Shown piece after piece: positions 36,929 through 53,092 of a stretch of DNA of 64,000 nucleotides (positions are counted from its first letter, which is position 1; every line of letters starts with the position of its first letter). The notes beneath the pieces were generated by a model that did no database searches, had not been told where the DNA came from, and was given only the letters and a program-made list of their open reading frames with translations. A program made the translations under genes and the position numbers. The DNA is from Escherichia phage vB_Ec-M-J: sequence record OQ718158.1; one strand, given 5' to 3'.

Positions 36929-37568
<640 letters not shown>

Positions 37569-37755: not shown

Positions 37756-38253
<498 letters not shown>

Positions 38254-38254
38254 T

Positions 38255-38286
<32 letters not shown>

Positions 38287-38330
38287 GATTCCCGATTCAG
38301 TAGTTTTAAAGCAGACCCGTATGTGCCTAT

Positions 38331-38422
<92 letters not shown>

Positions 38423-38441
38423 AGAGGTACTTCGAGTATGC

Positions 38442-38493
<52 letters not shown>

Positions 38494-38582
38494 TCAGTAC
38501 TACTTTTTAATTGACATATCATTGGATGAGGTGTAATATGGTTCAAGAAGAAAACTGGGGTTTTTAACACAAAGAGGCCAAT

Positions 38583-38629
<47 letters not shown>

Positions 38630-38654
38630 TGCTGCACCTATGCCTACTCTTGGC

Positions 38655-38725
<71 letters not shown>

Positions 38726-38726
38726 A

Positions 38727-38766
<40 letters not shown>

Positions 38767-38894
38767 TCAGGTCGATTAGTTAAAAGAGTATAACACGGAC
38801 CTTGTAAGTCTGAATAATCAGTGCAATTCTGATATTGACCTCAAAAATGATATTTTTCTTACATATAAATACTCCATAATATATGGAGAACTAT

Positions 38895-39290
38895 ATGAAA
38901 GAAAAACGTTATTGTACATGTTGTAAAATTGAATTGGTTCGAAAGGGCCAAACAAAATATTGTAGTGTTGCATGTCAACAAGAGCTACAATATCAACAGA
39001 AAGTTGATAAATGGCTTAACGGTGAACATCCTGGATATAAAGGTATTACCATACAGTTATGTCCATTTGTGAGAAGATATCTACATGAAACACGCGGAAC
39101 TGCATGTGAAGAATGTGGATGGGATAAACGTCATCCAATAGATGGTGCAGTACTGACAGAAGTTGAGCACATTGATGGTGATGCTACAAATAATGACCTA
39201 CCAAATTTAAAAATCCTTTGCCCTAATTGTCATTCGATGACACCAACATTCAGAGCAAGGAACAAGAACTCCGCAAGGAATCGTAAATAA
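38895..39290 (+). CDS. HNH homing-type endonuclease (131 aa)
   Basis: N-terminal Cys-rich zinc ribbon; HNH core EVEHIDGDATNNDLPNLKILCPNCH; ATG 38895 with SD ggag. Confidence 0.8.
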   Translation: MKEKRYCTCCKIELVRKGQTKYCSVACQQELQYQQKVDKWLNGEHPGYKGITIQLCPFVRRYLHETRGTACEECGWDKRHPIDGAVLTEVEHIDGDATNNDLPNLKILCPNCHSMTPTFRARNKNSARNRK

Positions 39291-39306
39291 TTTTTTAAGG
39301 TACAAT

Positions 39307-39726
39307 ATGACATACAACATTGTTAAAATGGTGAACTACGTATTAAAAAACAACGCATGGTCACTGCATGATGTACAATTAGAAGATATTGGTGAAGTTA
39401 GAGTTTTTTGCTATGATGACGATTTGAACGAAACCACAGATTTGAGTAAATGTTTTAATATTTTTCTTGGTTATGAAATCGATAATCATTTTTATTCATT
39501 TGATGTGTATGTTGAACGAGTTAAAATCAGAATTTCTAATGTAAATAGTGATTATTTTGACACTATTATGATTGAATTGAATTTTGACGATATTGATACT
39601 GAAGAAAAATTCTTTCAGTACTGTCTCGTAAACGATCTAAATGGATTGACATTTGAGGACATTAAAGCTATACTTATAGTTCAAAGATTAATTCCAGAAG
39701 AGGTTATAAATCCCTTTAATGACTAG
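39307..39726 (+). CDS. FQxS-motif family protein (139 aa)
   Basis: TEEKFFQYCLVND. Confidence 0.7.
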   Translation: MTYNIVKMVNYVLKNNAWSLHDVQLEDIGEVRVFCYDDDLNETTDLSKCFNIFLGYEIDNHFYSFDVYVERVKIRISNVNSDYFDTIMIELNFDDIDTEEKFFQYCLVNDLNGLTFEDIKAILIVQRLIPEEVINPFND

Positions 39727-40078
39727 TTTAATAACTCGTATAATGCAAGATGTTCGTAAGAATCTTCATACTGGTAATTTTGATGATCCTAACATAAAAA
39801 TATTATGTTATGATGTATTCACACTGGTACACCCATCTGAATCTAATAATATATACATAGCATATACTTCTCCTAATATTTTGTATCAATTTGACTTATA
39901 TAGTACAATGGCTAAGATAACATTAGATGTTTCTAAGGAGCCATTTTTTATAGCAGTACGTGATTTTGAGTACACAGAAGAGTCATTATTCCAGTACTCA
40001 ATGATAAATGACATTGGTGACTTGACATTAGAAGAGATAAATGTTATAGTTGGTATGTGTCGTTTGATTAATCCATAA
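39719..40078 (+). CDS. FQxS-motif family protein (119 aa)
   Basis: TEESLFQYSMIND. Confidence 0.7.
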   Translation: MTSLITRIMQDVRKNLHTGNFDDPNIKILCYDVFTLVHPSESNNIYIAYTSPNILYQFDLYSTMAKITLDVSKEPFFIAVRDFEYTEESLFQYSMINDIGDLTLEEINVIVGMCRLINP

Positions 40079-40091
40079 CTCGGAGCTTAAT

Positions 40092-40283
40092 ATGTTTTTG
40101 AATTTGTTATGCTTATTTGGTCGTACATTGGTTCTTGCTATTATTCATACACCTGGTATTCGTAATTATGTTTCTTATGAATTTAAGAAAAATTACCACA
40201 ACAATACTGAAGTTCGTGCAACTAAGATGTGCAAAGACTTCAATGGAGATGTTCCACCATTCAAGAAGTACGAGGATGAATAA
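40092..40283 (+). CDS. small hydrophobic protein (63 aa)
   Basis: ATG with SD cggagc; N-terminal hydrophobic segment. Confidence 0.45.
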   Translation: MFLNLLCLFGRTLVLAIIHTPGIRNYVSYEFKKNYHNNTEVRATKMCKDFNGDVPPFKKYEDE

Positions 40284-40567
40284 TGGAATTTATTGTTGCA
40301 CCTGATGAACTAAAAACATTCACGTTCCGAGACAATAACAATTATCCTTATACAAATCATTCATTGAATTCATTGCATGTTATTTCAATCATTGCATCTG
40401 AATACAGAGACAATCCATGTATTGATTTTAAAACCACTGATGGTGAATATACATGGGTAGTTCCGAACGATAAATACAGTTATCAGGGTGCAGTAGAGAT
40501 CCGCGACTCGATTCTAAAGCAAATCGAAGATGGACATACTCATCCTAAACTAAACATTCAGTACTGA
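40283..40567 (+). CDS. hypothetical protein (94 aa)
   Basis: Start overlaps upstream stop. Confidence 0.6.
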   Translation: MEFIVAPDELKTFTFRDNNNYPYTNHSLNSLHVISIIASEYRDNPCIDFKTTDGEYTWVVPNDKYSYQGAVEIRDSILKQIEDGHTHPKLNIQY

Positions 40568-40758
40568 AATCGTTTAACCGGATAGCTTCTAGTCGGTACT
40601 GAATTCCTCCTTTTGTCTAGAAGCTATCACTCTTTTAAAGTATAATGATATCACCCTCATGGTTCATTATATTCGTTACCCTCTAACAGTATCTTTTTAT
40701 TCCTCTTTGATACTGTATTTTAGAAGTTGACATTTTTACTTCTACTGTGTTATACTTA

Positions 40759-40789
40759 AGGCTGATTCATTATGAATCGGCCTTTTTTC
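40759..40789 (+). terminator. Rho-independent terminator / leader hairpin
   Basis: aggctgattcat t atgaatcggcct then tttttt; a TTGACA-18-TATACT promoter-like pair (40727-40756) sits immediately upstream. Confidence 0.55.
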
Positions 40790-40806
40790 TTGTGGGGATT
40801 AATGTA

Positions 40807-41223
40807 ATGAATAAAGAAGTTATTAGTTTAATGGATGAGTATATCAACCAAACATATCGTTTTATATTTTTTAATGCATTTGAGTCCAGGACAACGTATC
40901 ATTCTGGTGAATATGAGATAATAACTGGATCATTTCTTAACGGATACATGGAGTTTTTAGAACAAAGCGATAATGTTTTCATTTCCATATCTGAAAAACA
41001 TGGTGATGATTATGTTATTGATGTATGGCCTAATAAAGTAGAGATTGACACTACAAAGAAAATTGTAATTGATGTGGACGAATCATTGTATGATTTAACT
41101 GAAGATATGTATATGCAACTAAATTTCGTATACGATCTAACTAACATAAGTTATTCTAATCTAAGTAAATTATTTTATATTTGTGGTGTACTACATAAAA
41201 ACGTACAACAAAATAAAGGATAA
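40807..41223 (+). CDS. FQxS-like family protein, divergent (138 aa)
   Basis: TEDMYMQLNFVYD; ORF-track GTG 40747 runs through the terminator hairpin; first ATG is 40807. Confidence 0.6.
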   Translation: MNKEVISLMDEYINQTYRFIFFNAFESRTTYHSGEYEIITGSFLNGYMEFLEQSDNVFISISEKHGDDYVIDVWPNKVEIDTTKKIVIDVDESLYDLTEDMYMQLNFVYDLTNISYSNLSKLFYICGVLHKNVQQNKG

Positions 41224-41295
41224 ACATTTAAATGTTGACAATTGACAACATAAATGGTATCTTTGAAATTGCCAGAAACCTACGAGGAATATGAT

Positions 41296-41703
41296 ATGGT
41301 CAAAATTTTAAGTGACAATGCGGTTGATATTGTCATTGATGTACTTGAAAACAGTAATACATTTGAGAAGAAACACAGTACTGTATACTTCGGTAAAGAT
41401 TGTTGGCTGAACTATACATCTGATAGTTCATTTATAATTCGTGTTGAGAAGGGTGATATTGGATTAACGATACATGCTTCCTATACTAAAACAATCACTG
41501 TTATTGCCAACAAGCCAAGTACTTCTGATTTCTGGGATAGAATTGATGATTGTGACCATTTCATGTCAACATTCTATAAAACAGAAGAAGAACATTTCAT
41601 GGATAGTACTGTCAAAGAATTAGCTATTCCATTTAAACTTATGAAAGCAGCAAGAGATTTTATTTTAAAATACAAAAAAATAGGAGTTGATGATGCAATT
41701 TAA
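41296..41703 (+). CDS. FQxS-motif family protein, FM variant (135 aa)
   Basis: TEEEHFMDSTVKE; ATG 41296 with SD cgaggaa (alternative ATG 41254). Confidence 0.65.
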   Translation: MVKILSDNAVDIVIDVLENSNTFEKKHSTVYFGKDCWLNYTSDSSFIIRVEKGDIGLTIHASYTKTITVIANKPSTSDFWDRIDDCDHFMSTFYKTEEEHFMDSTVKELAIPFKLMKAARDFILKYKKIGVDDAI

Positions 41704-42139
41704 TGGTAAGGTTTCTAAAGTAGGTTTAGTTTTTGAAAATTGTGAGTTCATTGAGATTGATGTAAAGAATGTTTTATGGATGCATATTGCTGACGTGAAA
41801 ACTCTTTGTAGTCGTTTTTCCAACGGTCTAACTATTAGTACTGGTATTGGTGAGTTCGGTATTGCATTGCGTAGTGATACTCCATCGGATTTCATGGATA
41901 ACTCTACACTGTTAGACCGTTTAAAAATGCGTGATGTTACACACGTTTATCTTTATGATACTAATGGTGTTGAACAGCGTTATGTAGTTGAATGGGCTAA
42001 TTATAACCTTAGTGATCAATATTCAGTAAACCAGCGTGTTCAACTCACCCCTGGTGGTAATATTGTGTTTGTTAGTTCAACTGGTAAATTAATCAGTGTA
42101 GATGATGAAAGTATTGATCTATTCACTTCATATAACTAA
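41687..42139 (+). CDS. hypothetical protein (150 aa)
   Basis: ATG with SD taggag; overlaps upstream gene by 17 nt. Confidence 0.6.
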   Translation: MMMQFNGKVSKVGLVFENCEFIEIDVKNVLWMHIADVKTLCSRFSNGLTISTGIGEFGIALRSDTPSDFMDNSTLLDRLKMRDVTHVYLYDTNGVEQRYVVEWANYNLSDQYSVNQRVQLTPGGNIVFVSSTGKLISVDDESIDLFTSYN

Positions 42140-42150
42140 TACGAGATAAT

Positions 42151-42570
42151 ATGAAAACAATCAAAACACATTTCAAAGATACATGGACAGAAGTAAGTAC
42201 TGGTAATATTCAAGATATTTTATACAGTACTGAAACTATTCATGTATATGATGAAGAGACAGCAGCCGAGCAGTTAAAGGTATTGCATCGTAGTGTAGGT
42301 GAACACACCGAGTACGGTGTCAAACATACTCGTGAATTGGTAAGTACTGATCATATTGACACCCGCACTGTAAATCTATCAAAAGAAGAAATGTTTGATT
42401 TTATTCTAAACAATACTTTAGCAATTCAACCAGATGGTTCACTATACAGTAAAACAGATGGTACACAAGTTCGTAAAAAGTACAATGTGACCATCAATGA
42501 TACGGTGATGTCTGGATATGATTTAGTTGATGCAATCAACGAGTACGTTTCTATGCAGAGGTTGAAATGA
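42151..42570 (+). CDS. hypothetical protein (139 aa)
   Basis: ORF in array. Confidence 0.65.
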   Translation: MKTIKTHFKDTWTEVSTGNIQDILYSTETIHVYDEETAAEQLKVLHRSVGEHTEYGVKHTRELVSTDHIDTRTVNLSKEEMFDFILNNTLAIQPDGSLYSKTDGTQVRKKYNVTINDTVMSGYDLVDAINEYVSMQRLK

Positions 42571-42932
42571 TTAATCTGATATATTTTACAATTATTTGTT
42601 GCATTACTATTGTACTTTGTCGTCTAATTCATGTATACTCATATCATAAAGCGTTGAGAATCGAACAAGAGATTTACAACGAAAACCGTGAGCCAGAGCC
42701 AGAGAAGCTACCCCGCTCACCATATGCATTGAAGCGTGAGATGCATTCGGAGAGTAAGAAGTGGGGTTATGCAATAACCAAGCATGGTTATATCTACACT
42801 GCTGCAAATGGCTATTTTCAAATTCACCATGATCTTTCAGTTGCGATTGGAATTTTATGGGAAATGGAGGATATAGGTGGTTATGAGCGTACTAAATTCC
42901 CAAACTTACAAAATGATCCAGGAACTTCATGA
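42567..42932 (+). CDS. membrane-anchored protein (121 aa)
   Basis: N-terminal hydrophobic segment; ATGA coupling. Confidence 0.6.
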   Translation: MINLIYFTIICCITIVLCRLIHVYSYHKALRIEQEIYNENREPEPEKLPRSPYALKREMHSESKKWGYAITKHGYIYTAANGYFQIHHDLSVAIGILWEMEDIGGYERTKFPNLQNDPGTS

Positions 42933-43086
42933 AGAACATGATATAATTGTAGATGTAGAAAAGAAGGAAGTTGTTATGAAGAAGCAAGCATACCGCATCT
43001 TAGACAACTTCTATCTTAAGGCATTTATAATGAAGTTCTGTGCAGACGAGCACTTAACAGGACGTGTTATACGCAAGGAGTCGTAG
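42877..43086 (+). CDS. hypothetical protein (about 69 aa), start uncertain
   Basis: GTG 42877 or ATG 42883 after SD ggagg; overlaps upstream gene by about 50 nt. Confidence 0.4.
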   Translation: MVMSVLNSQTYKMIQELHEEHDIIVDVEKKEVVMKKQAYRILDNFYLKAFIMKFCADEHLTGRVIRKES

Positions 43087-43428
43087 ATGGACATGAGTTC
43101 AACAATTCAGTACTTGAGCGAGAATTTTGTCAAAATCATTTCACGTGGTGGTATGATTGTGCATCCTGAAACTGAAGATATGTATATCATTCGTTTTGAT
43201 GCAAATTCTTATGATCAAGTACTTGTTGTTTCGAAATTAGTAGGTTATAATGAAGTCGTTCAGTTCTGCTGTACCGAGTTCGGTATCTATATTAAAGATG
43301 CAGAAACCAATGAGATTTCACATTATTTTTATCACACACTGATGGGTACTAAAGATTTTGGATTGAAATTCAATGATTTAGTACAATGTCACTATATGTT
43401 TAAAACATACCCAGCATCTGGGAAATAA
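43087..43428 (+). CDS. hypothetical protein (113 aa)
   Basis: ORF in array. Confidence 0.6.
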   Translation: MDMSSTIQYLSENFVKIISRGGMIVHPETEDMYIIRFDANSYDQVLVVSKLVGYNEVVQFCCTEFGIYIKDAETNEISHYFYHTLMGTKDFGLKFNDLVQCHYMFKTYPASGK

Positions 43429-43439
43429 GGAGTAACAAT

Positions 43440-44255
43440 ATGAGCAACATTTTCTTCAAAACCATTTCCTTCAAAAAAGAATCTTACTCTTACGCTTATG
43501 TAGATGGTAAAGTACTCAATATCGTTCTAGATGGTGTTGATGTGCCTGTTCAATTTACCAGTCATCAAGAAGCGATTGAGGGTGCTCAAGAGCTTAACAG
43601 CTTACTAAATGGTATTGAGAAGAAACCTGAAGTTAAATCTGACCTTGATTTATTGGTTGACAAAATTAAAAGTGGTGAACTATTATCAATTCTAGACCAG
43701 TGTAATGAAAAATTACGTGGTGTTGTTGGTGATGTACGTACTACAGTTCAAGATCGTCTACTTGAGCAAGCATTCAAAGAAGTTACTAAGAAAACTGAAG
43801 AACGTGTTGAAGGTATGATTAAAAACATTGATGACGTTCTCACTCATATGTTCACCAAGCCATACGAATCAAGTACTGATTCTGAAGAGAAACAAGAAGA
43901 ACCAGTAGAACGCACCAAGCCATCTATTGTTACTAAAGTTAAACATAGTTTTGGTTCACTGGATGATGTATTTGGCTTTACAAATGTACGTGTTAGTACT
44001 GATGAAAAACCAGAAGTTGATGAAATGCTAATTGGTGACATGACAACTGGACAACTCAAAAAAGAGATTGATACCTTTGTTAATGAACTAATTAGTTCTG
44101 AACGTGCTGAAAATATGTTTAGCAGTATTTCAGCAAACTTCGGTAAAGAAGCAACTGAGCAAGCAGTACAGGCATTCAAAGATTTGATTTACACTGTTGC
44201 AATTGCTAATCCAGAACAAACACTGGAAGAAGTTCTACGTAAAAACTTCAAATAA
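43440..44255 (+). CDS. hypothetical acidic protein (271 aa)
   Basis: ATG with SD aaggag. Confidence 0.7.
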   Translation: MSNIFFKTISFKKESYSYAYVDGKVLNIVLDGVDVPVQFTSHQEAIEGAQELNSLLNGIEKKPEVKSDLDLLVDKIKSGELLSILDQCNEKLRGVVGDVRTTVQDRLLEQAFKEVTKKTEERVEGMIKNIDDVLTHMFTKPYESSTDSEEKQEEPVERTKPSIVTKVKHSFGSLDDVFGFTNVRVSTDEKPEVDEMLIGDMTTGQLKKEIDTFVNELISSERAENMFSSISANFGKEATEQAVQAFKDLIYTVAIANPEQTLEEVLRKNFK

Positions 44256-44269
44256 GATATAGATAAAAG

Positions 44270-44296
44270 AAAAGCCACTACAATGTAGTGGCTTTT
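44270..44296. terminator. bidirectional Rho-independent terminator
   Basis: aaaagccactacaatgtagtggctttt: A-run before and T-run after the hairpin, between convergent genes. Confidence 0.75.
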
Positions 44297-44299
44297 TTG

Positions 44300-45457
44300 T
44301 TATGCGTTATAACCAACAATGACTACAGTACAGCCAAATGGTTCAACAACTTTTAATACAACATTATCATCTGCATCGAGTTCAACTTCACTTAGAACAA
44401 CATGATTGTCTTCAGCATATACTTGAACTTGTGGGAGGATTTTACCATGTTCACTGACAGGAATGGACAGTGTGTACATAGAATCACCATCAACTACCCA
44501 ATCACTATCGGTATACGTGTTGTGATATGGAGTGGTGTGTAAGGTTTTACCAATAATACTCAATGAGATTGGAGCGTCATCAGTTTGGTACACAGTAATA
44601 TTACCGCTAGGATCTACAATGAGGTCTACTCCAATTTGGAATAAATCACCACTGTATGCTTGTAGAGCAAGATACTCACCACGCTCATGCACAGTAGCTG
44701 GTACAGTTGCCATGTACATACCATCGGACGTGTACTCAAACTGAGATAGAAGTACTGAAGTAACGAAGTCAATATCTTCGCCGCTTTCTAGTATATCAAA
44801 TTCAATAGTTTTGGTATTATATATGTCAGAAGTGAGTATGATGGTTCCTTTACCGGATTGAGTAATTGGATCAACTGGAATACTAAAAACATCATCAATT
44901 ATTTCAGTTGTGAAGTACTCGGTTCCGTCAGGAAGTATAACGGTAATACGCATTCCAGTTGTATCAATGGCTGAACCTGCGTTGAATAGGCGACCACCTA
45001 CCAAATCATCACCTACGAACGTTGGGAACATAAGGATGTTGTCTATATCTCTATCTATAATCCCGCATTCAGGGGTGTACATATTATATAGTGTTTGTGA
45101 ACTACCTAGAATTGTTTTGTGCAAAAGAAACTTATAAACAAACCCAGTAGGATCTGATTCAAGTTTAGCATCTGAGTATCCTCTTACGAAAAAAGAGTTC
45201 TTTCTTATTTCACTTAGGATTTGGTCATTAGTTTTGTTGTAGTTTAATTGATATCCTTGTATATCCTTTGTTGTAATTTGTACTTTACGATAAATTACAT
45301 TACTTACAGGATCAAGTAAATCATATAATCTATGGCTTCTCTGACGATAGATTCGAACATTTTTGAGTTTAGTCCCATCGTTGAGAATTGCACCATCGAC
45401 TACATATCCACATTCACCGAACTTATATCGTCCAGCAGCAGCAATCGATCTTGACAT
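44300..45457 (-). CDS. hypothetical protein (385 aa), only clear minus-strand gene
   Basis: Long ORF; SD ggaggg 5 nt upstream of ATG on minus strand; late-box-like AATAAATA upstream; function not recognisable. Confidence 0.8.
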   Translation of the reverse strand: MSRSIAAAGRYKFGECGYVVDGAILNDGTKLKNVRIYRQRSHRLYDLLDPVSNVIYRKVQITTKDIQGYQLNYNKTNDQILSEIRKNSFFVRGYSDAKLESDPTGFVYKFLLHKTILGSSQTLYNMYTPECGIIDRDIDNILMFPTFVGDDLVGGRLFNAGSAIDTTGMRITVILPDGTEYFTTEIIDDVFSIPVDPITQSGKGTIILTSDIYNTKTIEFDILESGEDIDFVTSVLLSQFEYTSDGMYMATVPATVHERGEYLALQAYSGDLFQIGVDLIVDPSGNITVYQTDDAPISLSIIGKTLHTTPYHNTYTDSDWVVDGDSMYTLSIPVSEHGKILPQVQVYAEDNHVVLSEVELDADDNVVLKVVEPFGCTVVIVGYNA

Positions 45458-45517
45458 TCATCCCTCCATTGGTATAATTATTATAACGTATTTATTCTAG
45501 ATAGGTAAAAAAGCACC

Positions 45518-45546
45518 TTGACTGAGTTGTGTTTTTGACGTATACT
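45518..45546 (+). promoter_or_regulatory. sigma70-type promoter (TTGACT-17-TATACT)
   Basis: Upstream of gene at 45574, divergent from the minus-strand gene. Confidence 0.45.
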
Positions 45547-45573
45547 TAAATGGAATATCAATAAGGGGATTTT

Positions 45574-46158
45574 ATGAGTGTTGTAGAAAAACGTTTAGTA
45601 CTGAAAAATGGTAAAATGACTGTTAAGCTATACAAAGATGAAGCTGATTCTTTTATGGCTAAAGCAATTGAGAAATCCGAACGATATAAAATTCTTGCAC
45701 CTGCAAGTAAATCGCCGTATGGGTTTAATCACGCTCACAGTCATTTTGTTGGTATGGTATGTGAACATGCTTCATTTGTACTTTTTAATGAAATTGAAAA
45801 CTATTCAGGTATTGCACTTAACATCGATCCAGCGTTCCAAAGTGATGGACGTGATGGGGAATGTGATATCAAAGTAAACAACTTAAGAATTGAAGTGAAA
45901 GGTATCAAGTACAAATCGTGGACCGACTTTGGACCATGTGTTAGTACTCGACAGTTAAAAAATATACAGAAAAAAGCTGACGTTATTCTGTGGGTATTGT
46001 ATAATGAGAAAAAGCAAGAATTCACATTTGAGGGATTCAACTATGTAAAAGACATTAGTTCGATTCCAGTTGTGCTAACAGGTGTACCAGGGCGACCAAT
46101 GATTGAAAATCACCCAGTACTGAGTATTATTAAACCACTTCAGGAGTTACCATTATGA
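45574..46158 (+). CDS. hypothetical protein (194 aa)
   Basis: ATG with SD aagggga. Confidence 0.7.
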   Translation: MSVVEKRLVLKNGKMTVKLYKDEADSFMAKAIEKSERYKILAPASKSPYGFNHAHSHFVGMVCEHASFVLFNEIENYSGIALNIDPAFQSDGRDGECDIKVNNLRIEVKGIKYKSWTDFGPCVSTRQLKNIQKKADVILWVLYNEKKQEFTFEGFNYVKDISSIPVVLTGVPGRPMIENHPVLSIIKPLQELPL

Positions 46159-46382
46159 TTACTGCCACTGTATATCAAGATATTAATGAAGAATTTAATT
46201 CTAAAATTGCATTTTTATCCTTTCCCGTATTGCCAGCTATTGGTGCTACGTTGAATCTTACAATCTGTGGCTTTGAAAAATACTATGAAGTACTAGATAT
46301 TGAGTACTGTGCAGATGTTTATTCATGCAACAGTGAGATTGCTATTCCTGTGCAAATCGACATTATTGTAAAAGAGGTTTGA
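46155..46382 (+). CDS. hypothetical protein (75 aa)
   Basis: ATGA-coupled. Confidence 0.55.
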   Translation: MITATVYQDINEEFNSKIAFLSFPVLPAIGATLNLTICGFEKYYEVLDIEYCADVYSCNSEIAIPVQIDIIVKEV

Positions 46383-46843
46383 TTATGTTTAAACACTTTC
46401 TAGTAATCACTGCTGTTGTATTCAGTACTTCCTGCTTTGTTGCACCAGTACATGCGGAAGACCAGCGTCAAACAATCAAGACGATTGGAACAGGGAAAGC
46501 CCAACCAAAACGTACTGCTGAAGAATACATGCCTGAGATGCGTGAACGTTACCGCCAGCAATACCGTGAAAAACATGCTAATGATAAGCCTATCAAAAAG
46601 CATAAATGGAATGTAGTCAAATCGCCATCGTTTTGTGCTGGGTATGCTAAGGTTAAGGATGAACAGCACAACAAACAGTACTATAAAGATATGTACACAT
46701 TCTATGATTCGAGGATCTCGGATGATGACATGATGGCTGCTAAGGTTGATAAAGAAGAATTTCTTCAGGGTTATGACATGACCGATGATGACAAGATCAT
46801 GGAATGTGTTGAAGTATATGAAAAATACAGAGGTTTTGAATGA
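46379..46843 (+). CDS. secreted/periplasmic protein with signal peptide (154 aa)
   Basis: N-terminus MIMFKHFLVITAVVFSTSCFVAPVHA looks like a cleavable signal peptide. Confidence 0.65.
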   Translation: MIMFKHFLVITAVVFSTSCFVAPVHAEDQRQTIKTIGTGKAQPKRTAEEYMPEMRERYRQQYREKHANDKPIKKHKWNVVKSPSFCAGYAKVKDEQHNKQYYKDMYTFYDSRISDDDMMAAKVDKEEFLQGYDMTDDDKIMECVEVYEKYRGFE

Positions 46844-47283
46844 CACTTTTGCTGATTCTAGGTTTATTAGTGTCATATTTCATTTTTCTTAACATCTTCT
46901 CTGATGCATCACATTTTGCATATGCTTCAGCTATTGCAAAACACGAAGGGATAAAGAAGTATATTCCTGCATTGTTATTCTCATATATGTACCATCCAAG
47001 GTACTTTACACTAGGTGTGTTTGACAAGTATGTATACGACGAAAAAGCACTCAATGAAATTGAATACTTTGTAAGAACTCATGCTAATAACAATCCAAAA
47101 TCATTAATTAACTTTACTGATAATCGCAAACGTGTTAGTATTAGAAGTGACTTGTATCCTACCAGTCACTTTCATCTAGGCGATTGTAGTGTGTACAGGG
47201 TTAGATACGAAAACTTACTGTTACCACCATCACATATAAGATACATAGAAAAATACTTGTTGAAATGTGTTGACTCCAAATAG
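46840..47283 (+). CDS. membrane-anchored protein (147 aa)
   Basis: N-terminal TM LLLILGLLVSYFIFL. Confidence 0.6.
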   Translation: MTLLLILGLLVSYFIFLNIFSDASHFAYASAIAKHEGIKKYIPALLFSYMYHPRYFTLGVFDKYVYDEKALNEIEYFVRTHANNNPKSLINFTDNRKRVSIRSDLYPTSHFHLGDCSVYRVRYENLLLPPSHIRYIEKYLLKCVDSK

Positions 47284-47336
47284 TAAATGGCAGTATAATA
47301 GCTTCGTACCGCAATAACTGACAAGAGGATTTAACG

Positions 47337-47795
47337 ATGGACGTATTAGCTACTCAATTCAAACGCAACGCAGAAGAACGTGAAGGTTACCTAAGTATCA
47401 GTGAAGTGGTTGAAGATGGATTCAAGCAGTACATTTTCAACAGTGCAATTAAACTGAAGCCAACAAAAGATTCACCGGACCGCAGCTTCACCAAGTGGAT
47501 TGCATTCTGGGAAGAGTCACCAATTGCAATCGAAATGACTGTCATCACTACAGTACTGGAAACTGGTTACATCAAAGCAATTGTAGTTGATAAGAAAGTT
47601 CGTACTCTTGATGAAATCGGGACATACCCAGCACGTAACTCTAAAGTATTTGGGTGTTTAGTTGATGGTAAGTTTATGATTGAAAAAGATGCTAAGAACT
47701 ATGTAATTGATAAACTACAAACCAGTGCTACTAAACAGGAAGTCGTAGACCAGAACGCAGTGGATGCTATTAAAAAGGCATGGGGTCTGAAATAA
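47337..47795 (+). CDS. hypothetical protein (152 aa)
   Basis: ATG with SD agagga. Confidence 0.65.
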   Translation: MDVLATQFKRNAEEREGYLSISEVVEDGFKQYIFNSAIKLKPTKDSPDRSFTKWIAFWEESPIAIEMTVITTVLETGYIKAIVVDKKVRTLDEIGTYPARNSKVFGCLVDGKFMIEKDAKNYVIDKLQTSATKQEVVDQNAVDAIKKAWGLK

Positions 47796-48217
47796 TGTTC
47801 ACACTTAGCAATGCAAAGTATCTATTTCTTATTGCTATTATTGGTTGGGTGATGGCTCCAGTGCTTAATGCACTGGGGTTTCCAGACGGACATAAACTTG
47901 TAAATGTTTCAGGTGTAATCCAGGGCATTTCATGGTATTCATTGATTATATTTTCTATATGTATTCATACATTTGCACGTGATCACCGCCGTCTGCTTTT
48001 TGTTAAAGTATTCGGTACTAAGAGATATAGTTTTGTGTTTACATTTATTTTAATACCATGTATTATCTATGCTTTTGTATTTGATTACTATACTTATCTG
48101 TGGGTGTGTGGTTCTATGTTTGTTATGTTGGAATATACAAGAACTGTTCAAAACTCATATGCTGATGAGTATTATGATCTTGAAGTTAAACGAAAATTAA
48201 CGGAGCTAAACAAATGA
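47780..48217 (+). CDS. polytopic membrane protein (145 aa)
   Basis: At least three hydrophobic segments. Confidence 0.6.
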   Translation: MGSEIMFTLSNAKYLFLIAIIGWVMAPVLNALGFPDGHKLVNVSGVIQGISWYSLIIFSICIHTFARDHRRLLFVKVFGTKRYSFVFTFILIPCIIYAFVFDYYTYLWVCGSMFVMLEYTRTVQNSYADEYYDLEVKRKLTELNK

Positions 48218-48639
48218 GGGGATACAATAAGATTTGTATTTTTGTATTTTTAGTTTGTGCAATCAATACATTTGGATATTACTGTACTGAAAACAACATT
48301 TCATATGGTTTAAATCCTTTGTGGTTTACAATTGCCAATGTAGCACAAATTGGTATTGCTGTTATGTCTGCACTTATGTTCTGTCCAATTGTCACTATGG
48401 ATACTGATCATGAAAGGCTTGGATTTATCCGTGATACTGGAGACGAACCTTACAGTAGATTGATTGTGTTGTATCCATTTATTGTTATTTTAGGTACTAA
48501 CATCCAACTTGGGTCTTTATCTAATAGTGTTACTTCAGCAGCCATTACAGTCTTTGCATTCACATTTTTTATGGTACACAAATCAGTACTCAAATGGCAC
48601 ATCACCAAAATGGCAGAGAAAGGTACGGAAAACAGTTGA
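48214..48639 (+). CDS. polytopic membrane protein (141 aa)
   Basis: Several hydrophobic segments; ATGA coupling. Confidence 0.6.
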   Translation: MRGYNKICIFVFLVCAINTFGYYCTENNISYGLNPLWFTIANVAQIGIAVMSALMFCPIVTMDTDHERLGFIRDTGDEPYSRLIVLYPFIVILGTNIQLGSLSNSVTSAAITVFAFTFFMVHKSVLKWHITKMAEKGTENS

Positions 48640-48698
48640 CGTGAGTTATTGAGAGATATATAATTATTACATCAAAACTGGGAAATGGTAAGGAACTT

Positions 48699-48950
48699 AT
48701 GAACATCGATAAGGTCAAAGAACTTAGTGAAGCACTAATTAAGAACGAAGAAGCTTGTGAAGAACTTCGCAGTACTATCAAAGTTGAGTACGCACGTCTT
48801 CAAGCTATGCTTCAGGAATCCGAATGGGTTGTAACTAAATCTATCGAAGCAATCTATAAGGATATCGAATCCCTTTTCAACAAGAAAAGTAAGATTGAAT
48901 CTGATTCATATAACAAACGTAAAGAGTTATCTACTGCACTTGGTATCTAA
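48699..48950 (+). CDS. hypothetical protein (83 aa)
   Basis: ORF with SD. Confidence 0.55.
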   Translation: MNIDKVKELSEALIKNEEACEELRSTIKVEYARLQAMLQESEWVVTKSIEAIYKDIESLFNKKSKIESDSYNKRKELSTALGI

Positions 48951-48956
48951 AAGTAT

Positions 48957-48985
48957 TTGACTTAACCAATAACATGGAGTACAAT
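48957..48985 (+). promoter_or_regulatory. sigma70-type promoter (TTGACT-17-TACAAT)
   Basis: Upstream of gene at 49025. Confidence 0.5.
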
Positions 48986-49024
48986 GTGCTCCTAATTTAA
49001 TTATCAGCTAAAAAGGAAAACATT

Positions 49025-49285
49025 ATGAAATCTATTCTCGTTGCAGTTAACCTGGTTGCTTCCCCATCTTTTAACTTCAAACAAGTTGTTGCTGATAATC
49101 TGAAGAAGATCTGTCCAAACGCTGAATTGACTTTCTGTGTGTTTGATTCAGAAAAAGTAACTAAAGTTGATCTAAACTATCTTTTGAACGAAGTACAAAG
49201 TATTTCTGGTGAAAGTAGTTTGGAAGTACTGAATACGGTTGCTGATGACTATGATGATACACTGGTAATTTCGGAGAAATTCTAA
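49025..49285 (+). CDS. hypothetical protein (86 aa)
   Basis: ATG with SD aaaagga. Confidence 0.6.
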   Translation: MKSILVAVNLVASPSFNFKQVVADNLKKICPNAELTFCVFDSEKVTKVDLNYLLNEVQSISGESSLEVLNTVADDYDDTLVISEKF

Positions 49286-49290
49286 ATCCA

Positions 49291-49710
49291 ATGCTTAGAT
49301 TTATACATTACTTAATCAGTAAGTTCTTTGGTTATTATACTATTGAAGGTAAAGCTACGCTTGCACATAAAATCTTTGTAGCATTATGTGTGGGTGATTA
49401 TGACGTATTGAATAAGCACTGTAAATCTAAAGCATGTATTGACATAATGGCACTTCGTATCTATGAGTGTCAGTTCAATAGATATAATTTTTACCAGTAC
49501 AGATATGATAAAGATGATTTTGATAGCATTAAAATGCTAAAGAATTTATGTAATAATAAAAAGAATATGCATATATCTGAATTTGTTGCATTGTATTTTT
49601 ATTTAAAAAGTTCATTATACATGAATACACTACAACGCTTCGATACTAGAATTAATGTATTCAACGATAAAGAATTTTATATCTATGATAAATTTTTAGA
49701 TAAGGTTTAA
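49291..49710 (+). CDS. hypothetical protein (139 aa)
   Basis: ORF in array. Confidence 0.6.
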   Translation: MLRFIHYLISKFFGYYTIEGKATLAHKIFVALCVGDYDVLNKHCKSKACIDIMALRIYECQFNRYNFYQYRYDKDDFDSIKMLKNLCNNKKNMHISEFVALYFYLKSSLYMNTLQRFDTRINVFNDKEFYIYDKFLDKV

Positions 49711-49711
49711 T

Positions 49712-50209
49712 ATGACAACTGTTTATATTGATAAACGCTTGGGAGTATTACTTACTGATTCAAAAGTGACATCAACTGAGCAACGTTCATTTTTGAACCT
49801 ATTCCCGTTGAAGCCAAAACTTAGTTATGGTGTAGTTTCACAAAAAACATTGTATGTACACGACCGACTGTTTAGTGCTTGCGGTGAGGTTAGTGAAATT
49901 AACAAAGTACTGAGATACTTGATTTCACAAGAGACTGTGATACCAGACCGCAAGGCGAGTTGTCACTGTGTTCTTGTGTCAAAAGATTACATCATTCACT
50001 TAATCGTTAATAAGGGTAAGTTTACCAAGAAGATTGATTATCTCCATAATGATTATACATTCTTTATGGGTAGTGGTGGTGAATACATGCTTGATGCAGC
50101 AGTACATGAAGAGTATAATACTCTTCTTGATAAGGTATTTGATACCTTCATGGATGTTCATAACCATGATATCTATACCGATGATAATATTAATGTATAC
50201 CGTTTTTGA
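49712..50209 (+). CDS. hypothetical protein (165 aa)
   Basis: ORF in array. Confidence 0.65.
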   Translation: MTTVYIDKRLGVLLTDSKVTSTEQRSFLNLFPLKPKLSYGVVSQKTLYVHDRLFSACGEVSEINKVLRYLISQETVIPDRKASCHCVLVSKDYIIHLIVNKGKFTKKIDYLHNDYTFFMGSGGEYMLDAAVHEEYNTLLDKVFDTFMDVHNHDIYTDDNINVYRF

Positions 50210-50231
50210 TTTCATTCATTAGGAGAAGTAA

Positions 50232-51200
50232 GTGAAAAAGCTTGATTTAAATGCAATTTCTGAAGAAGTACTGGATGAGTGTTTTGCTAGTGAAGAAGTC
50301 AACGTATTAGAGGCTCTTGATTCCGTAGAAGAAGAAGAAGAACATGACGGTCACAAGTTTGAGAAACCAAAAACAGGTATCAGCTTAACTCGCCCTAAAG
50401 GGATAACGAATGAAATGCTCATCCAAGCAGTGCGTGATGGCATAGACGTTAAAAAGAACATTGACCTTTTGGTTCGCTACAACTATCCAATGGTAGTAAG
50501 TGTTGCACGTAAGTGTACATGTTTTATCCCATTTGAAGATAAGATTTCTTATGGTGTTGAAGGTTTAATGCGAGCAATTCATACGTTCGACACTACCAAA
50601 AATGTTAAGTTCATTACATATGCAACAACAACTGTGTACATGACAATCTATAACGAAAGTGCAGATGCTAATTATCTAGTGCATTTCCCACGTTATATGA
50701 GTGTTAATAACATTTATGTGAAACGTTGTGTTGAAGAGTATCAAAGGAAACATGGTAAATACCCAACTCCTGAGATGGTGTCAAAAGAGACTGGTATTGA
50801 GATTCAACACGTTAAGAATTGTCTAACTTACAATAACACTTATGTAGCATTGAATATGAAAATGAGTAATGATTCAGAAAGTACATTATCTGACATTGTT
50901 ACTTCAGTTGAACCTGATTACAACTTAGGTGTAGAAACTGTCAGTACCCCACTGGTACAAAGTATTGCAGAAATGATGAGTAACCTATCTACCAAAGACC
51001 GTGAATTGATTGAACGTGTACATGGTATTGGTTCTTATTCTGAACCAGAAACGCTACGAGAAATCATTGAGAGTGGTTTTGAAGATGAGAAGGGTAAGGT
51101 CATGACTGCTCGTTCTTCATTGCACCGTAAGTACTCTGAAGCAATGGAACGACTGCGTAAGATGGTTAAGACAAAAGGTTATGAGTTCGAAGATTTTTAA
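50232..51200 (+). CDS. sigma-70 family RNA polymerase sigma factor (322 aa), GTG start
   Basis: Region 2 ISYGVEGLMRAIHTFDTTKNVKFITYATTTVYMTIYNE, linker KYPTPEMVSKETG, region 4 HTH at C-terminus; GTG after SD aggaga. Confidence 0.85.
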   Translation: MKKLDLNAISEEVLDECFASEEVNVLEALDSVEEEEEHDGHKFEKPKTGISLTRPKGITNEMLIQAVRDGIDVKKNIDLLVRYNYPMVVSVARKCTCFIPFEDKISYGVEGLMRAIHTFDTTKNVKFITYATTTVYMTIYNESADANYLVHFPRYMSVNNIYVKRCVEEYQRKHGKYPTPEMVSKETGIEIQHVKNCLTYNNTYVALNMKMSNDSESTLSDIVTSVEPDYNLGVETVSTPLVQSIAEMMSNLSTKDRELIERVHGIGSYSEPETLREIIESGFEDEKGKVMTARSSLHRKYSEAMERLRKMVKTKGYEFEDF

Positions 51201-51206
51201 GATTAA

Positions 51207-51234
51207 AGGGTTGACTTCGGTCAGCCCTTTTTTT
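51207..51234 (+). terminator. Rho-independent terminator with UUCG loop
   Basis: agggttgac ttcg gtcagccct then ttttttt. Confidence 0.75.
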
Positions 51235-51239
51235 ATGGG

Positions 51240-51770
51240 ACAAATTTATTAATGGTGATACAATGATCTATGTACAATCACAATGACAGTACTGGTACTG
51301 ACAATCTTCCCCTACTTCACTTGAAAATGTAAAGGATAGATGAGCTTTTCATTGTAGCGAACAGCAAAAGAAACCCGTTAGATGTGGGCATAGTTTGAAC
51401 CCCTCACGGCAATGCGGCTGTATAAAGAACCACGTTAGGATAGCTGGTGGTTCCTCGATAGACATATAAGGATAACACCTTACGAATTATCTAAGGGAGA
51501 GTTATCGAATTTTGTACAGGAAAGTTGCGTCCAAAATTTGAGTACTCACATTAAGTATTTGATTGCATAGATACTTAATGAAGATACACTATGTTTAAAA
51601 GTGTAGACCGTCATATGAAACTGAAGTAGAGAGAAACAGGATGACCCGCTTTCGCACTCGTTATGAGTAATCTTCAATGCAATAGCTCTGATACCATTAG
51701 CGTCAAATTTCCCTCCGTGCGGGGGGGAAGAAAAATCCCTTCCTCAAATCCCGTCAATATTAAAAGTCCT
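51240..51770 (+). other. ~530-nt ORF-free region, candidate structured RNA or regulatory region
   Basis: No ORF of 60 aa or more in the six-frame track on either strand, and none found by eye in the + strand reading; nested inverted repeats; locally GC-richer. Confidence 0.3.
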
Positions 51771-51798
51771 TGACAGTTATGATTCATTCGCGTAGAAT
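51770..51798 (+). promoter_or_regulatory. sigma70-type promoter (TTGACA-17-TAGAAT)
   Basis: Upstream of gene at 51863. Confidence 0.55.
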
Positions 51799-51862
51799 AC
51801 GTAGTATTAGAAGCGAACAGACATCTCGAAGAGATGGATGATTAACCACTAAGGAATATCTA

Positions 51863-52072
51863 ATGAATTCAGTAATCTTTTTAATTATTGCTCTTTCACC
51901 ACAATCTGGTGTACAAATCACCCCAATGAATTCAATGAATCAATGCATTGCAGTACGTGACAGTACGTATGAACAAGTAAACAGCGTTTCACTTAGAACA
52001 GTTGGTGAAGAATTAATGTGGTGTTACAATAGTAATACTAAAGAAAAACTAATTGTTGGACAAACAGAATGA
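51863..52072 (+). CDS. small protein with N-terminal hydrophobic segment (69 aa)
   Basis: ATG with SD aaggaa. Confidence 0.5.
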   Translation: MNSVIFLIIALSPQSGVQITPMNSMNQCIAVRDSTYEQVNSVSLRTVGEELMWCYNSNTKEKLIVGQTE

Positions 52073-52296
52073 GTTATGGTGTTCGTTTTGAGATTCGTTC
52101 TATTGTTATCAATGACGAGAAACAAGCATCGTTGGATGACGATATACGAGAACTATATCTATCATGTATCCGTGCAAAATCTGAAGCAGATGCATTATCA
52201 CAAATGATTGGTTTTAATTTCTTTCATGGATACTATTTGGTACGAGTTATCGAAGTTAAAAAAGTCACTTTTGAGTGTCTTGCTGGAGAAATATAA
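52069..52296 (+). CDS. hypothetical protein (75 aa)
   Basis: ATGA-coupled. Confidence 0.5.
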   Translation: MSYGVRFEIRSIVINDEKQASLDDDIRELYLSCIRAKSEADALSQMIGFNFFHGYYLVRVIEVKKVTFECLAGEI

Positions 52297-52297
52297 A

Positions 52298-53092
52298 ATG
52301 AGCACTATAGATGAATTGATTCGCCGGAATTCAAAATACTACGAACCATCAGAAATTGTCGGCAACATTACTAAATCTGAGTTCGGACCAAATACTCGAA
52401 AACTCATTCATGTAATGTCACGTGATGGCTTTAAATGTGATTGTTGTGGTGAATCCAATGTGGTATTCACTTTACATAAGCACAGTACTAAAGACCGTTA
52501 TAAATTCAGACCTTATGTACTTAAAGGGAAACGCCTTGTACGCATGACGTTAGACCATAATGTACTAGACTGTCTTCAGGGCGGTAATGATAAAGAGAAC
52601 ATGACTGCATTGTGTGAGGATTGTAACGCATTACGCCAGCATAAGTTTGCTGAGTACAGTGAGTTTAAGTACTGGTATCATAACGCAGATCGTTCCATCG
52701 AGCCTGACGTTAACTACTGCTTCATTGAGTACATTAAGAATGCAAAAGATACATACATTCTAAAATCAATGTCACCTATTACAGTGTTCCCTGAGAATCT
52801 ATTCAGTACTATGCAGCGTGATTTTAAACGTGGTATCATTAATGCATTCAAACACTTAGACAAAGGTATCAAGCACTTTGAGGTGCAATGCTTAAATGAA
52901 GGAATGAATCGTTTAGTACAAATTTACATGAAATCATTTATAGGTGTTGACACCGCACGTCTACCAGTATATAATTACTTTATTGAAAGCGAAGAAGGTG
53001 AATCACTTCGTGATTATGGTGAAAGATTTAATAATAAAGTTTTCACTGCAATCGCAAACGAGATTCATTACTATAAACCATATGTAATTTAA
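52298..53092 (+). CDS. HNH-motif nuclease-like protein (264 aa)
   Basis: CDCCGES ... MTLDHNVLDCLQGGNDKENMTALCEDCNALRQ; ATG 52298 with SD ggagaa (ORF-track TTG 52208). Confidence 0.65.
   Translation: MSTIDELIRRNSKYYEPSEIVGNITKSEFGPNTRKLIHVMSRDGFKCDCCGESNVVFTLHKHSTKDRYKFRPYVLKGKRLVRMTLDHNVLDCLQGGNDKENMTALCEDCNALRQHKFAEYSEFKYWYHNADRSIEPDVNYCFIEYIKNAKDTYILKSMSPITVFPENLFSTMQRDFKRGIINAFKHLDKGIKHFEVQCLNEGMNRLVQIYMKSFIGVDTARLPVYNYFIESEEGESLRDYGERFNNKVFTAIANEIHYYKPYVI

Follow-up and report, generated by a model that had tools for sequence, protein, structure and literature searches.

Do two HNH nuclease genes, each lying close to an unusual non-coding region of a phage genome, mark two sites of recent insertion? 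The question is raised by a stretch of 64,000 nucleotides (nt) of Escherichia phage vB_Ec-M-J (record OQ718158.1), here called the window. A preliminary description had noted two such genes in it, HNH-1 at 38895 and HNH-2 at 52298, and had proposed both as candidate recent arrivals by analogy with the mobile HNH genes of T4-like phages. Both open reading frames (ORFs), of 131 and 264 amino acids (aa), are indeed found at these coordinates. The span as a whole probably comprises three separate things: a mobile cassette of a tRNA-Thr gene and HNH-1, a resident HNH-2 gene, and a stand-alone gene of a structured RNA (Table 1).

The analogy with T4 does not hold for the phage itself. Because megablast searches with both HNH loci return Escherichia and Salmonella Asteriusvirus jumbo phages with genomes of 350-386 kilobases (kb), among them PBECO4, 121Q, BF17, Turkey3, and TH47, at 85-99.8% identity, the source phage can be considered an Asteriusvirus-type jumbo coliphage of the PBECO4/121Q group and not T4-like. 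The window is a mosaic, the surroundings of HNH-1 being nearest to TH47, EC.P1, and WPEC5, and those of HNH-2 to Turkey3 (99.8%). Both nuclease genes are separate ORFs located between other genes, each with its own ribosome-binding site, and Rfam scans of the window revealed no intron family; neither gene is embedded in a group I or group II intron or an intein.

HNH-1 is preceded by a GGAG ribosome-binding site 5 nt upstream of its start codon, the mechanically delimited ORF beginning at 38883. Its product matches the Pfam HNH family (PF01844) at 21.4 bits, which is exactly the gathering score (E 2.8e-4), as well as 15 PHROGs annotated as HNH endonucleases (PHROG 1271 at 5e-18). The core motif C71xxC74...H92...N104...C109xxC112-H113 can be read from the translation, together with a Cys4 ribbon at the N-terminus, and on Pfam, PHROG, and motif evidence the protein is a predicted member of the HNH/His-Me finger nucleases. 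Its distribution is sporadic. Besides the window, tblastn finds HNH-1 in only three of about 38 related genomes, TH47, EC.P1, and WPEC5 (98-99% aa identity), and the next-best homologues, at 63-72%, belong to unrelated phages: T5-like phages, GAP32, an Ochrobactrum jumbo phage, and Pectobacterium CB7. The DNA homology of all other Asteriusvirus genomes ends exactly at position 38769, and that of Turkey3 and BF17 picks up again at about 39297, just 5' of the ribosome-binding site of the next gene, which gives clean breakpoints at 38769/38770 and ~39296/39297. In the relatives devoid of HNH-1 this slot is occupied by one or two canonical tRNA-Thr genes (two in tandem, both tRNA-Thr(UGU), in Turkey3 and BF17), and the comparison indicates that the cassette replaced one or two canonical tRNA-Thr genes of the lineage. 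The tRNA-Thr neighbour recurs elsewhere: in GAP32 a gene of the HNH-1 family is located immediately 3' of tRNA-Thr(UGU), and in the T5-like phage HdH2 a family gene abuts tRNA-Thr(UGU).

Sporadic presence at one locus, clean breakpoints, and a recurrent tRNA-Thr neighbour together form the pattern of a free-standing homing endonuclease, and for HNH-1 the proposal of recent insertion thus stands. A search for target-site duplications, suggested in the preliminary description, detected none flanking the cassette; only a weak 18-nt repeat of 72% identity, judged to be due to chance, is present there. This absence is not telling, because homing would leave no such duplication.

The opposite course of events has also to be weighed, in which the arrangement of tRNA-Thr and HNH-1 is ancestral and most relatives lost it when canonical tRNA-Thr genes took its place. 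GAP32, which represents another genus of the same clade, likewise has a tRNA-Thr followed by a homologous HNH gene, and CBB (KU574722.1, 275923-276020) carries an unannotated 98-nt remnant of the HNH-1 gene with 82% identity to its 3' part, a sign of past gain and decay in another genus. Such a history is nevertheless unlikely, given that the cassette is present in merely four of about 38 genomes (the window included) in copies 98-99% identical, that the tRNA-Thr of GAP32 is unrelated in sequence to that of the window, and that equally close HNH-1 homologues occur in T5-like phages.

Under the preferred reading, a recent gain by homing, HNH-1 would, in a mixed infection, cleave the canonical tRNA-Thr gene in a relative lacking the cassette, and recombinational repair from the cassette-bearing genome would copy the nuclease gene into the cut relative. 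The co-transferred divergent tRNA-Thr would presumably be uncleavable by HNH-1, that is, a resistant allele of its target, a route parallel to that of SegB in the tRNA cluster of T4. An indirect pointer to such an allele is the divergence of the cassette tRNA-Thr, identical in WPEC5, from the canonical tRNA-Thr of Turkey3 and BF17 at most positions. It has G2-C71 in place of C2-G71, a D loop without GG, the T loop UGCAAUU (TGCAATT in DNA), and U as the discriminator base; it may be poorly chargeable, or it may be a variant evading nucleases that act on the tRNA or on its gene. Some points weigh against this interpretation. The putative target of HNH-1 is deduced solely from the recurring tRNA-Thr neighbourhood, the atypical cassette tRNA-Thr may be non-functional, and the cassette could, as discussed above, be ancestral and lost in most relatives.

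The same tRNA cluster shows a second presence/absence polymorphism. In Turkey3 and WPEC5 a different HNH gene (PHROG 59) is located between tRNA-Ser genes, and at this site the window (36929-37300) and BF17 carry a 123-aa ORF of PHROG 38341, with no assigned function. The tRNA cluster is a general hotspot.

The region preceding the cassette, non-coding region 1, had been described as palindrome-rich and free of ORFs. The palindromes are present, and two further GTATTCAGTACTGAAT copies, 35 nt apart, were noted at 40556-40604, after a gene ending at 40567; the palindrome may serve as an operator or as a site of processing. The stretch 38238-38882 is not free of genes, as it contains a 37-aa gene as well as the tRNA-Thr gene. 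Region 1 is conserved at 90-97%, within Asteriusvirus only and about as much as the neighbouring genes, and it folds marginally better than shuffled sequences (z = -2.0). A small indel polymorphism is also present in region 1, a short segment around the promoter and the ribosome-binding site of the 37-aa gene being replaced: it comprises 60 nt in the window (38523-38582) vs. 117 nt in TH47 (160261-160377) and many relatives. The ATTCAGTACTGAAT motif is enriched, with 13 occurrences vs. 0.78 expected; as a general intergenic signal it was rejected, since apart from those at 38.2-38.5 kb and 40.5 kb most of its copies fall within coding sequences. Since region 1 is unchanged in relatives devoid of HNH-1, it is not an insertion scar, and it is best considered an ordinary genus-specific regulatory and small-gene region within the tRNA cluster.

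The second nuclease gene has a different history. HNH-2 scores below the cut-off against Pfam HNH (15.7 bits); it matches PHROG 35175 (2e-148), PHROG 25420 (6e-31), and at least a dozen 'HNH endonuclease' PHROGs in all, and its motif C47xxC50...D86-H87...N101...C106xxC109-N110 is invariant among homologues. On PHROG and motif grounds it is also a predicted HNH/His-Me finger protein. An AlphaFold2 model built on an alignment of four sequences (pLDDT 49.8) was too poor to use, and a sequence search of the PDB returned only a zinc-ribbon match regarded as noise. HNH-2 occupies the identical locus in essentially all Asteriusvirus genomes (about 37), with 78-100% aa identity. Homologues of 26-40% identity, usually two per genome, are found in BF, the pEa_SNUABM phages, CBB, GAP32, XbC2, Munch-like phages, and fHe-Yen9, the remote homologues extending over Eneladusvirus, Mimasvirus, the Munch-like group, and Xanthomonas jumbo phages. 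The ~265-aa protein encoded 3' of the RNA in CBB and BF was ruled out as an HNH-2 orthologue by BLASTP.

The preliminary description had itself named an identical position in the relatives as the observation that would speak against mobility, and this is what the synteny comparison found for HNH-2. Sporadic presence is not seen at this locus, the only variants being products of decay. In phage A4 the HNH domain (the N-terminal ~170 aa) has been deleted, leaving an 87-aa ORF that corresponds to aa 170-264 (window 52805-53092), and in CMSTMSU and SD-1_S14 the gene is split. As the nuclease domain is deleted in A4, HNH-2 is dispensable. These few cases of decay are the only hint of a selfish past. 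Judging from its distribution, HNH-2 is an old, vertically inherited gene of the whole jumbo-phage clade and not a recent arrival; it probably represents a homing-type nuclease that has become fixed and is partly decaying.

HNH-2 had further been said to follow a 530-nt ORF-free region after the sigma factor gene. An ORF-free stretch is located there; its length is 662 nt (51201-51862), and two small ORFs, of 69 and 75 aa, separate it from HNH-2. Sequence comparisons indicate, from both structure and conservation, that this stretch contains a stand-alone gene of a structured RNA of ~490 nt with its own extended -10 promoter. The 5' end of the RNA was set by the promoter, and the 3' end by the point where conservation stops. 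A TGnTAYAAT promoter precedes 18 of the 22 aligned members of the RNA family, and the sigma gene on its 5' side in the window is closed by a strong terminator.

The alignment of the family consists of long invariant blocks separated by hairpins with covarying stems. RNAalifold analysis of 22 distinct sequences yielded 61 base pairs, 32 of them with compensatory changes. The structure was tested with a model of 95 pairs in 19 helices, pseudoknot included, drawn from the window sequence. In this model 88.9% of the cells are paired vs. 38-45% when the 3' partners are slid, and changes on both sides occur in 62 of the 95 pairs vs. 18-23 when slid; derivation of the model from one member favours the unslid register for the share of paired cells and not for the compensatory counts. 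The covariation score is 0.412 vs. ~0.07 for the slid versions, and none of 500 shuffles reaches the observed values. Seven helices are 100% paired, among them the pseudoknot of GTCAT (51610-51614) with ATGAC (51641-51645), in which CG is replaced by UA in 10 sequences. On the + strand, G-U cells outnumber A-C cells by 121 to 45. With compensatory changes well above those of the controls, the element at 51271-51760 qualifies as a conserved structured RNA.

Several parts of the RNA are characteristic. Its first ~45 nt form a hypervariable hairpin, and GAAACAGGATGACCCGCTT is an invariant block additional to those given in Table 1. The invariant hairpin at 51478-51496, with ACCUUA paired to UAAGG(GAG), is similar to an anti-Shine-Dalgarno/Shine-Dalgarno duplex and has no conserved ORF after it. 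A module, AAUUUUG-UACAAnAnAGnUCCGUC-CAAAAUU, is absent, single, or double among the paralogues and is located at the tips of differing hairpins. In the window it spans ~31 nt (AAUUUUG-UACAnnAnAGnUnCGUC-CAAAAUU, 51508-51538), and it also occurs elsewhere in a hairpin at alignment columns ~505-540; it behaves like a transplantable structural module. The GC hairpin of the 3' part is kept even in paralogues with a terminator-like hairpin just 5' of it.

No entry of Rfam 15 (GOLLD, ROOL, HEARO, RNase P, transfer-messenger RNA (tmRNA), and introns included) matches 51271-51760 at the gathering threshold or at E <= 1, no match recurs among 15 homologous RNA loci at E <= 10, and ARAGORN detects no tmRNA. 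One candidate, ncRNA002 of the related jumbo phage PA5oct, a 451-nt RNA defined by RNA-seq, was rejected, as neither inspection by eye nor nhmmer revealed any similarity. Resemblances to RNase P CR-IV/V and to the 3' end of 16S RNA, noticed by eye, have no model support. Literature searches returned neither a description of this RNA family nor published transcript data.

The family extends far beyond the genus. BLAST in distant mode with 51201-51862 gives matches of ~70% identity to unannotated DNA, at two to five sites per genome, in Pectobacterium CBB, Cronobacter GAP32, Serratia BF, and Erwinia, Yersinia, Salmonella (Munch), and Xanthomonas jumbo phages; its range covers Asteriusvirus, Mimasvirus, Eneladusvirus, and the Munch-like, Yersinia, Erwinia, and Xanthomonas jumbo phages. 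The proteins flanking the distant copies have no homology to the sigma factor or to HNH-2, and the protein encoded 5' of the RNA in Munch is not the sigma factor. A motif scan identified 16 viral-contig loci, four of them in 121Q and two in CBB, and 25 metagenomic ones, ~22 of the latter being true homologues; among 185,579 bacterial genomes it found no true homologue, the sole match, in a Chitinophagaceae metagenome-assembled genome, not being one. The window contains one copy, with no further paralogue in it or within the 1-50 kb part of Turkey3. The whole genome of TH47 has four copies on one strand (49.4-49.9, 146.05-146.53, 261.96-262.47, and 345.49-346.06 kb), spaced by 97, 116, 84, and 56 kb around the 352-kb genome. 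In 121Q, TH47, Munch, fHe-Yen9-04, and two metagenomic phages, one copy has an ATPase/recombination-endonuclease pair on one side and a baseplate gene on the other, and because such contexts are syntenic across genera the paralogues are ancient.

Transcription of the RNA and its function can be suggested only by such comparisons. As a guess, an abundant trans-acting scaffold or ribonucleoprotein RNA, made early by the host RNA polymerase, is favoured, and the main alternative is a role in marking an origin or another site. Slightly better than even is the chance that the family is an undescribed class of large RNAs of the Rak2/121Q/GAP32 jumbo clade, with about four syntenic paralogues spread round the genome, which may partner nucleases of the HNH-2 family or mark or prime genome sites.

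The spread of the TH47 copies around the genome might hint at a role in genome organisation or at an origin, and the element could then work as DNA, i.e., as a replication origin, an organising site, or the source of an origin-priming transcript, and not as a trans-acting RNA. The four copies are co-oriented and scattered (49.6, 146.3, 262.2, and 345.8 kb), and a GC-rich palindrome containing a run of G forms the 3' end, where it is flanked by two CGTCAA repeats and is retained even behind terminator-like inserts. We consider this quite improbable: more than 15 hairpins with compensatory changes and conserved loops, the G-U/A-C asymmetry, the pseudoknot, and the dedicated promoter all indicate a folded RNA, and the cumulative GC skew has no inflection at the locus. 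What fits poorly with a single transcript of ~490 nt is the internal terminator-like hairpin that some paralogues have 5' of the 3' GC hairpin.

A separate issue is whether the RNA and HNH-2 are independent of each other. They may not be, as genes of the HNH-2 family lie 0.5-3.7 kb from RNA copies in several genera, which counts against treating them as separate. These genes are on the same strand as the RNA, at +0.54 kb in the locus analysed here, at -0.85 kb at another Asteriusvirus copy, and at +2.2 or +3.5-3.7 kb in CBB, BF, and eight metagenomic phages. In TH47 both genes of this family are within 1.1 kb of RNA copies, a proximity above chance (p ~ 1e-3, a rough estimate from two matches, ~3-kb windows, four sites, and 352 kb). 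The two could thus be functional partners, HNH-2 being an RNA-associated or RNA-guided nuclease, or one that processes the RNA or targets its gene. There is little probability of this: an HNH neighbour is missing at two of the four RNA copies, the distances and the intervening genes vary, phage A4 keeps an intact RNA gene 5' of its truncated HNH-2 although the nuclease domain is gone, and Pfam and PHROG searches detect no RuvC or other guide-RNA effector domain in HNH-2. A conserved syntenic block can account for the linkage in CBB and BF, and old synteny for the proximity in general. The reading of HNH-2 and the RNA as separate elements is retained.

The initial question can now be answered for both loci together. 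That both HNH genes are recent mobile insertions, with the adjoining non-coding regions as their landing sites or scars, would accord with the polymorphism of HNH-1 and with the attraction of nuclease-type genes by both the tRNA cluster and the RNA locus. In TH47 a 210-aa ORF (146555-147185, - strand) is wedged between the promoter of the RNA and its body, at a site orthologous to ~51265-51310 of the window, where it replaces the variable 5' hairpin; it matches only the C-terminal, DNA-binding half of PHROG 953 'HNH endonuclease' (E 1e-73), and with this ORF at the RNA locus nuclease-type genes do traffic there. Such a common origin is nevertheless very unlikely, since HNH-2 keeps its position in ~37 relatives and its homologues extend to other genera, conservation of the second non-coding region, with covariation of its structure, reaches far past the genus, and the first region is unchanged in relatives without HNH-1. 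Neither non-coding region is an insertion scar: one is a regulatory, small-gene, and tRNA region, and the other an RNA gene. The proposal of recent insertion holds for HNH-1 and fails for HNH-2.

Table 1. Features of the two HNH loci, with positions in the 64,000-nt window.
Feature	Position	Strand	Remarks
Candidate mobile cassette, tRNA-Thr(UGU) + HNH-1	38770 to ~39296	+	~530 base pairs (bp); limits are breakpoints vs. relatives
tRNA-Thr(UGU), divergent, AT-rich	38770-38842	+	Left half of the cassette; ARAGORN; Rfam tRNA, 52.8 bits
HNH-1	38895-39290	+	Right half of the cassette; predicted free-standing 131-aa HNH (His-Me finger) endonuclease; Pfam, PHROG
HNH-2	52298-53092	+	264-aa HNH-domain protein; HNH core ~aa 45-123, then ~140-aa C-terminal region
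Structured non-coding RNA gene, ~490 nt	51271-51760	+	At least 15 helices supported by covariation
Extended -10 promoter TGgTGATACAAT of the RNA gene	51253-51264	+	
RNA invariant block GATAGACATATAAGG	51457-51471	+	
RNA invariant hairpin ACCTTAC...TAAGGGAG	51478-51496	+	
GC hairpin of the RNA 3' part	51709-51729		Between two ...CGTCAA (family ...CGUCAR) repeats, 51696-51707 and 51747-51758
Phage sigma-70-family factor gene	50232-51200	+	Pfam Sigma70_r2, r3; same annotation in relatives
Intrinsic terminator of the sigma gene	51205-51237	+	11-bp stem followed by a T run
Sigma-70 promoter TTGACA-17-TAGAAT	51770-51798	+	For downstream genes; 11/12 matches
Small conserved ORF, 69 aa	51863-52072	+	PHROG 37707, no assigned function
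Small conserved ORF, 75 aa	52069-52296	+	PHROG 28392, no assigned function
Non-coding region 1	38238-38769	+	Palindromes, promoter, 37-aa gene, inverted repeat
Three GTATTCAGTACTGAAT palindromes	38255-38270, 38375-38390, 38490-38505		Spacing 115-120 nt; 5' of the consensus promoter
Sigma-70 promoter TTGACA-17-TAATAT	38511-38539	+	
Conserved 37-aa gene	38583-38696	+	PHROG 38501
12-bp inverted repeat	38707-38718 / 38753-38764		

Among the other genes of the window, a 385-aa ORF at 44300-45457 is the sole long ORF on the - strand amid + strand genes; it has no Pfam match.

The cassette with HNH-1 provides a clean natural case of a homing-type nuclease travelling with its own tRNA gene and illustrates how the tRNA sets of phages are reshuffled. 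Phage tRNAs counter host defences that cleave tRNAs, and for this reason such reshuffling is topical. The RNA family carries more weight: it is large, multi-copy, and phage-specific, has no Rfam model, and is unannotated in dozens of jumbo-phage genomes. It is present in culturable coliphages, and a new role of RNA in giant phages could come to light through it. The findings also amend genome annotation, in that spurious small ORFs overlie the RNA in several records.

With respect to known systems, the orthologue of HNH-2 in 121Q (gp170) and PBECO4, 78-79% identical at the aa level and located at the same locus, is already publicly annotated as an 'HNH endonuclease' (PHROG 35175). The HEARO RNA, the omega-RNA of IscB, is an HNH-endonuclease-associated RNA and ORF, and the present locus is similar in having a structured RNA of several hundred nt near an HNH-domain ORF on the same strand. 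It differs in that the RNA has no match to the Rfam HEARO model and also occurs without an HNH neighbour, HNH-2 lacks the RuvC and PLMP domains, and the variable 5' part of the RNA is a hairpin with no obvious free guide. GOLLD and ROOL are large ornate RNAs, often phage-borne (PMC12286853). The RNA of the window shares with them a length of hundreds of nt, rich covariation, carriage by phages, and the lack of an assigned function, and it is distinguished from them by the absence of matches to their Rfam models, by its enterobacterial jumbo-phage hosts, and by its four paralogues, each with a promoter.

The closest parallels of HNH-1 are found in T4 and T5. SegB of T4, a GIY-YIG enzyme that cleaves tRNA genes at their T-psi-C motif, drives the inheritance of the tRNA region, and F-TflI/II/IV of T5 are free-standing homing endonucleases encoded in the tRNA gene cluster of that phage (PMC2330249). 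Common to all of them and HNH-1 is a free-standing nuclease gene within a tRNA cluster, the presence of which varies between close relatives. SegB drags neighbouring tRNA genes along, and the HNH-1 cassette similarly brings its own tRNA-Thr. HNH-1 differs in being an HNH protein and not, like SegB, a GIY-YIG protein, in its specific association with tRNA-Thr(UGU) in three phage lineages, and in residing in an Asteriusvirus jumbo phage. Thus, the mobility of HNH-1 fits a known homing type, HNH-2 is a gene already annotated, and the RNA gene family is the previously unannotated component of this span.

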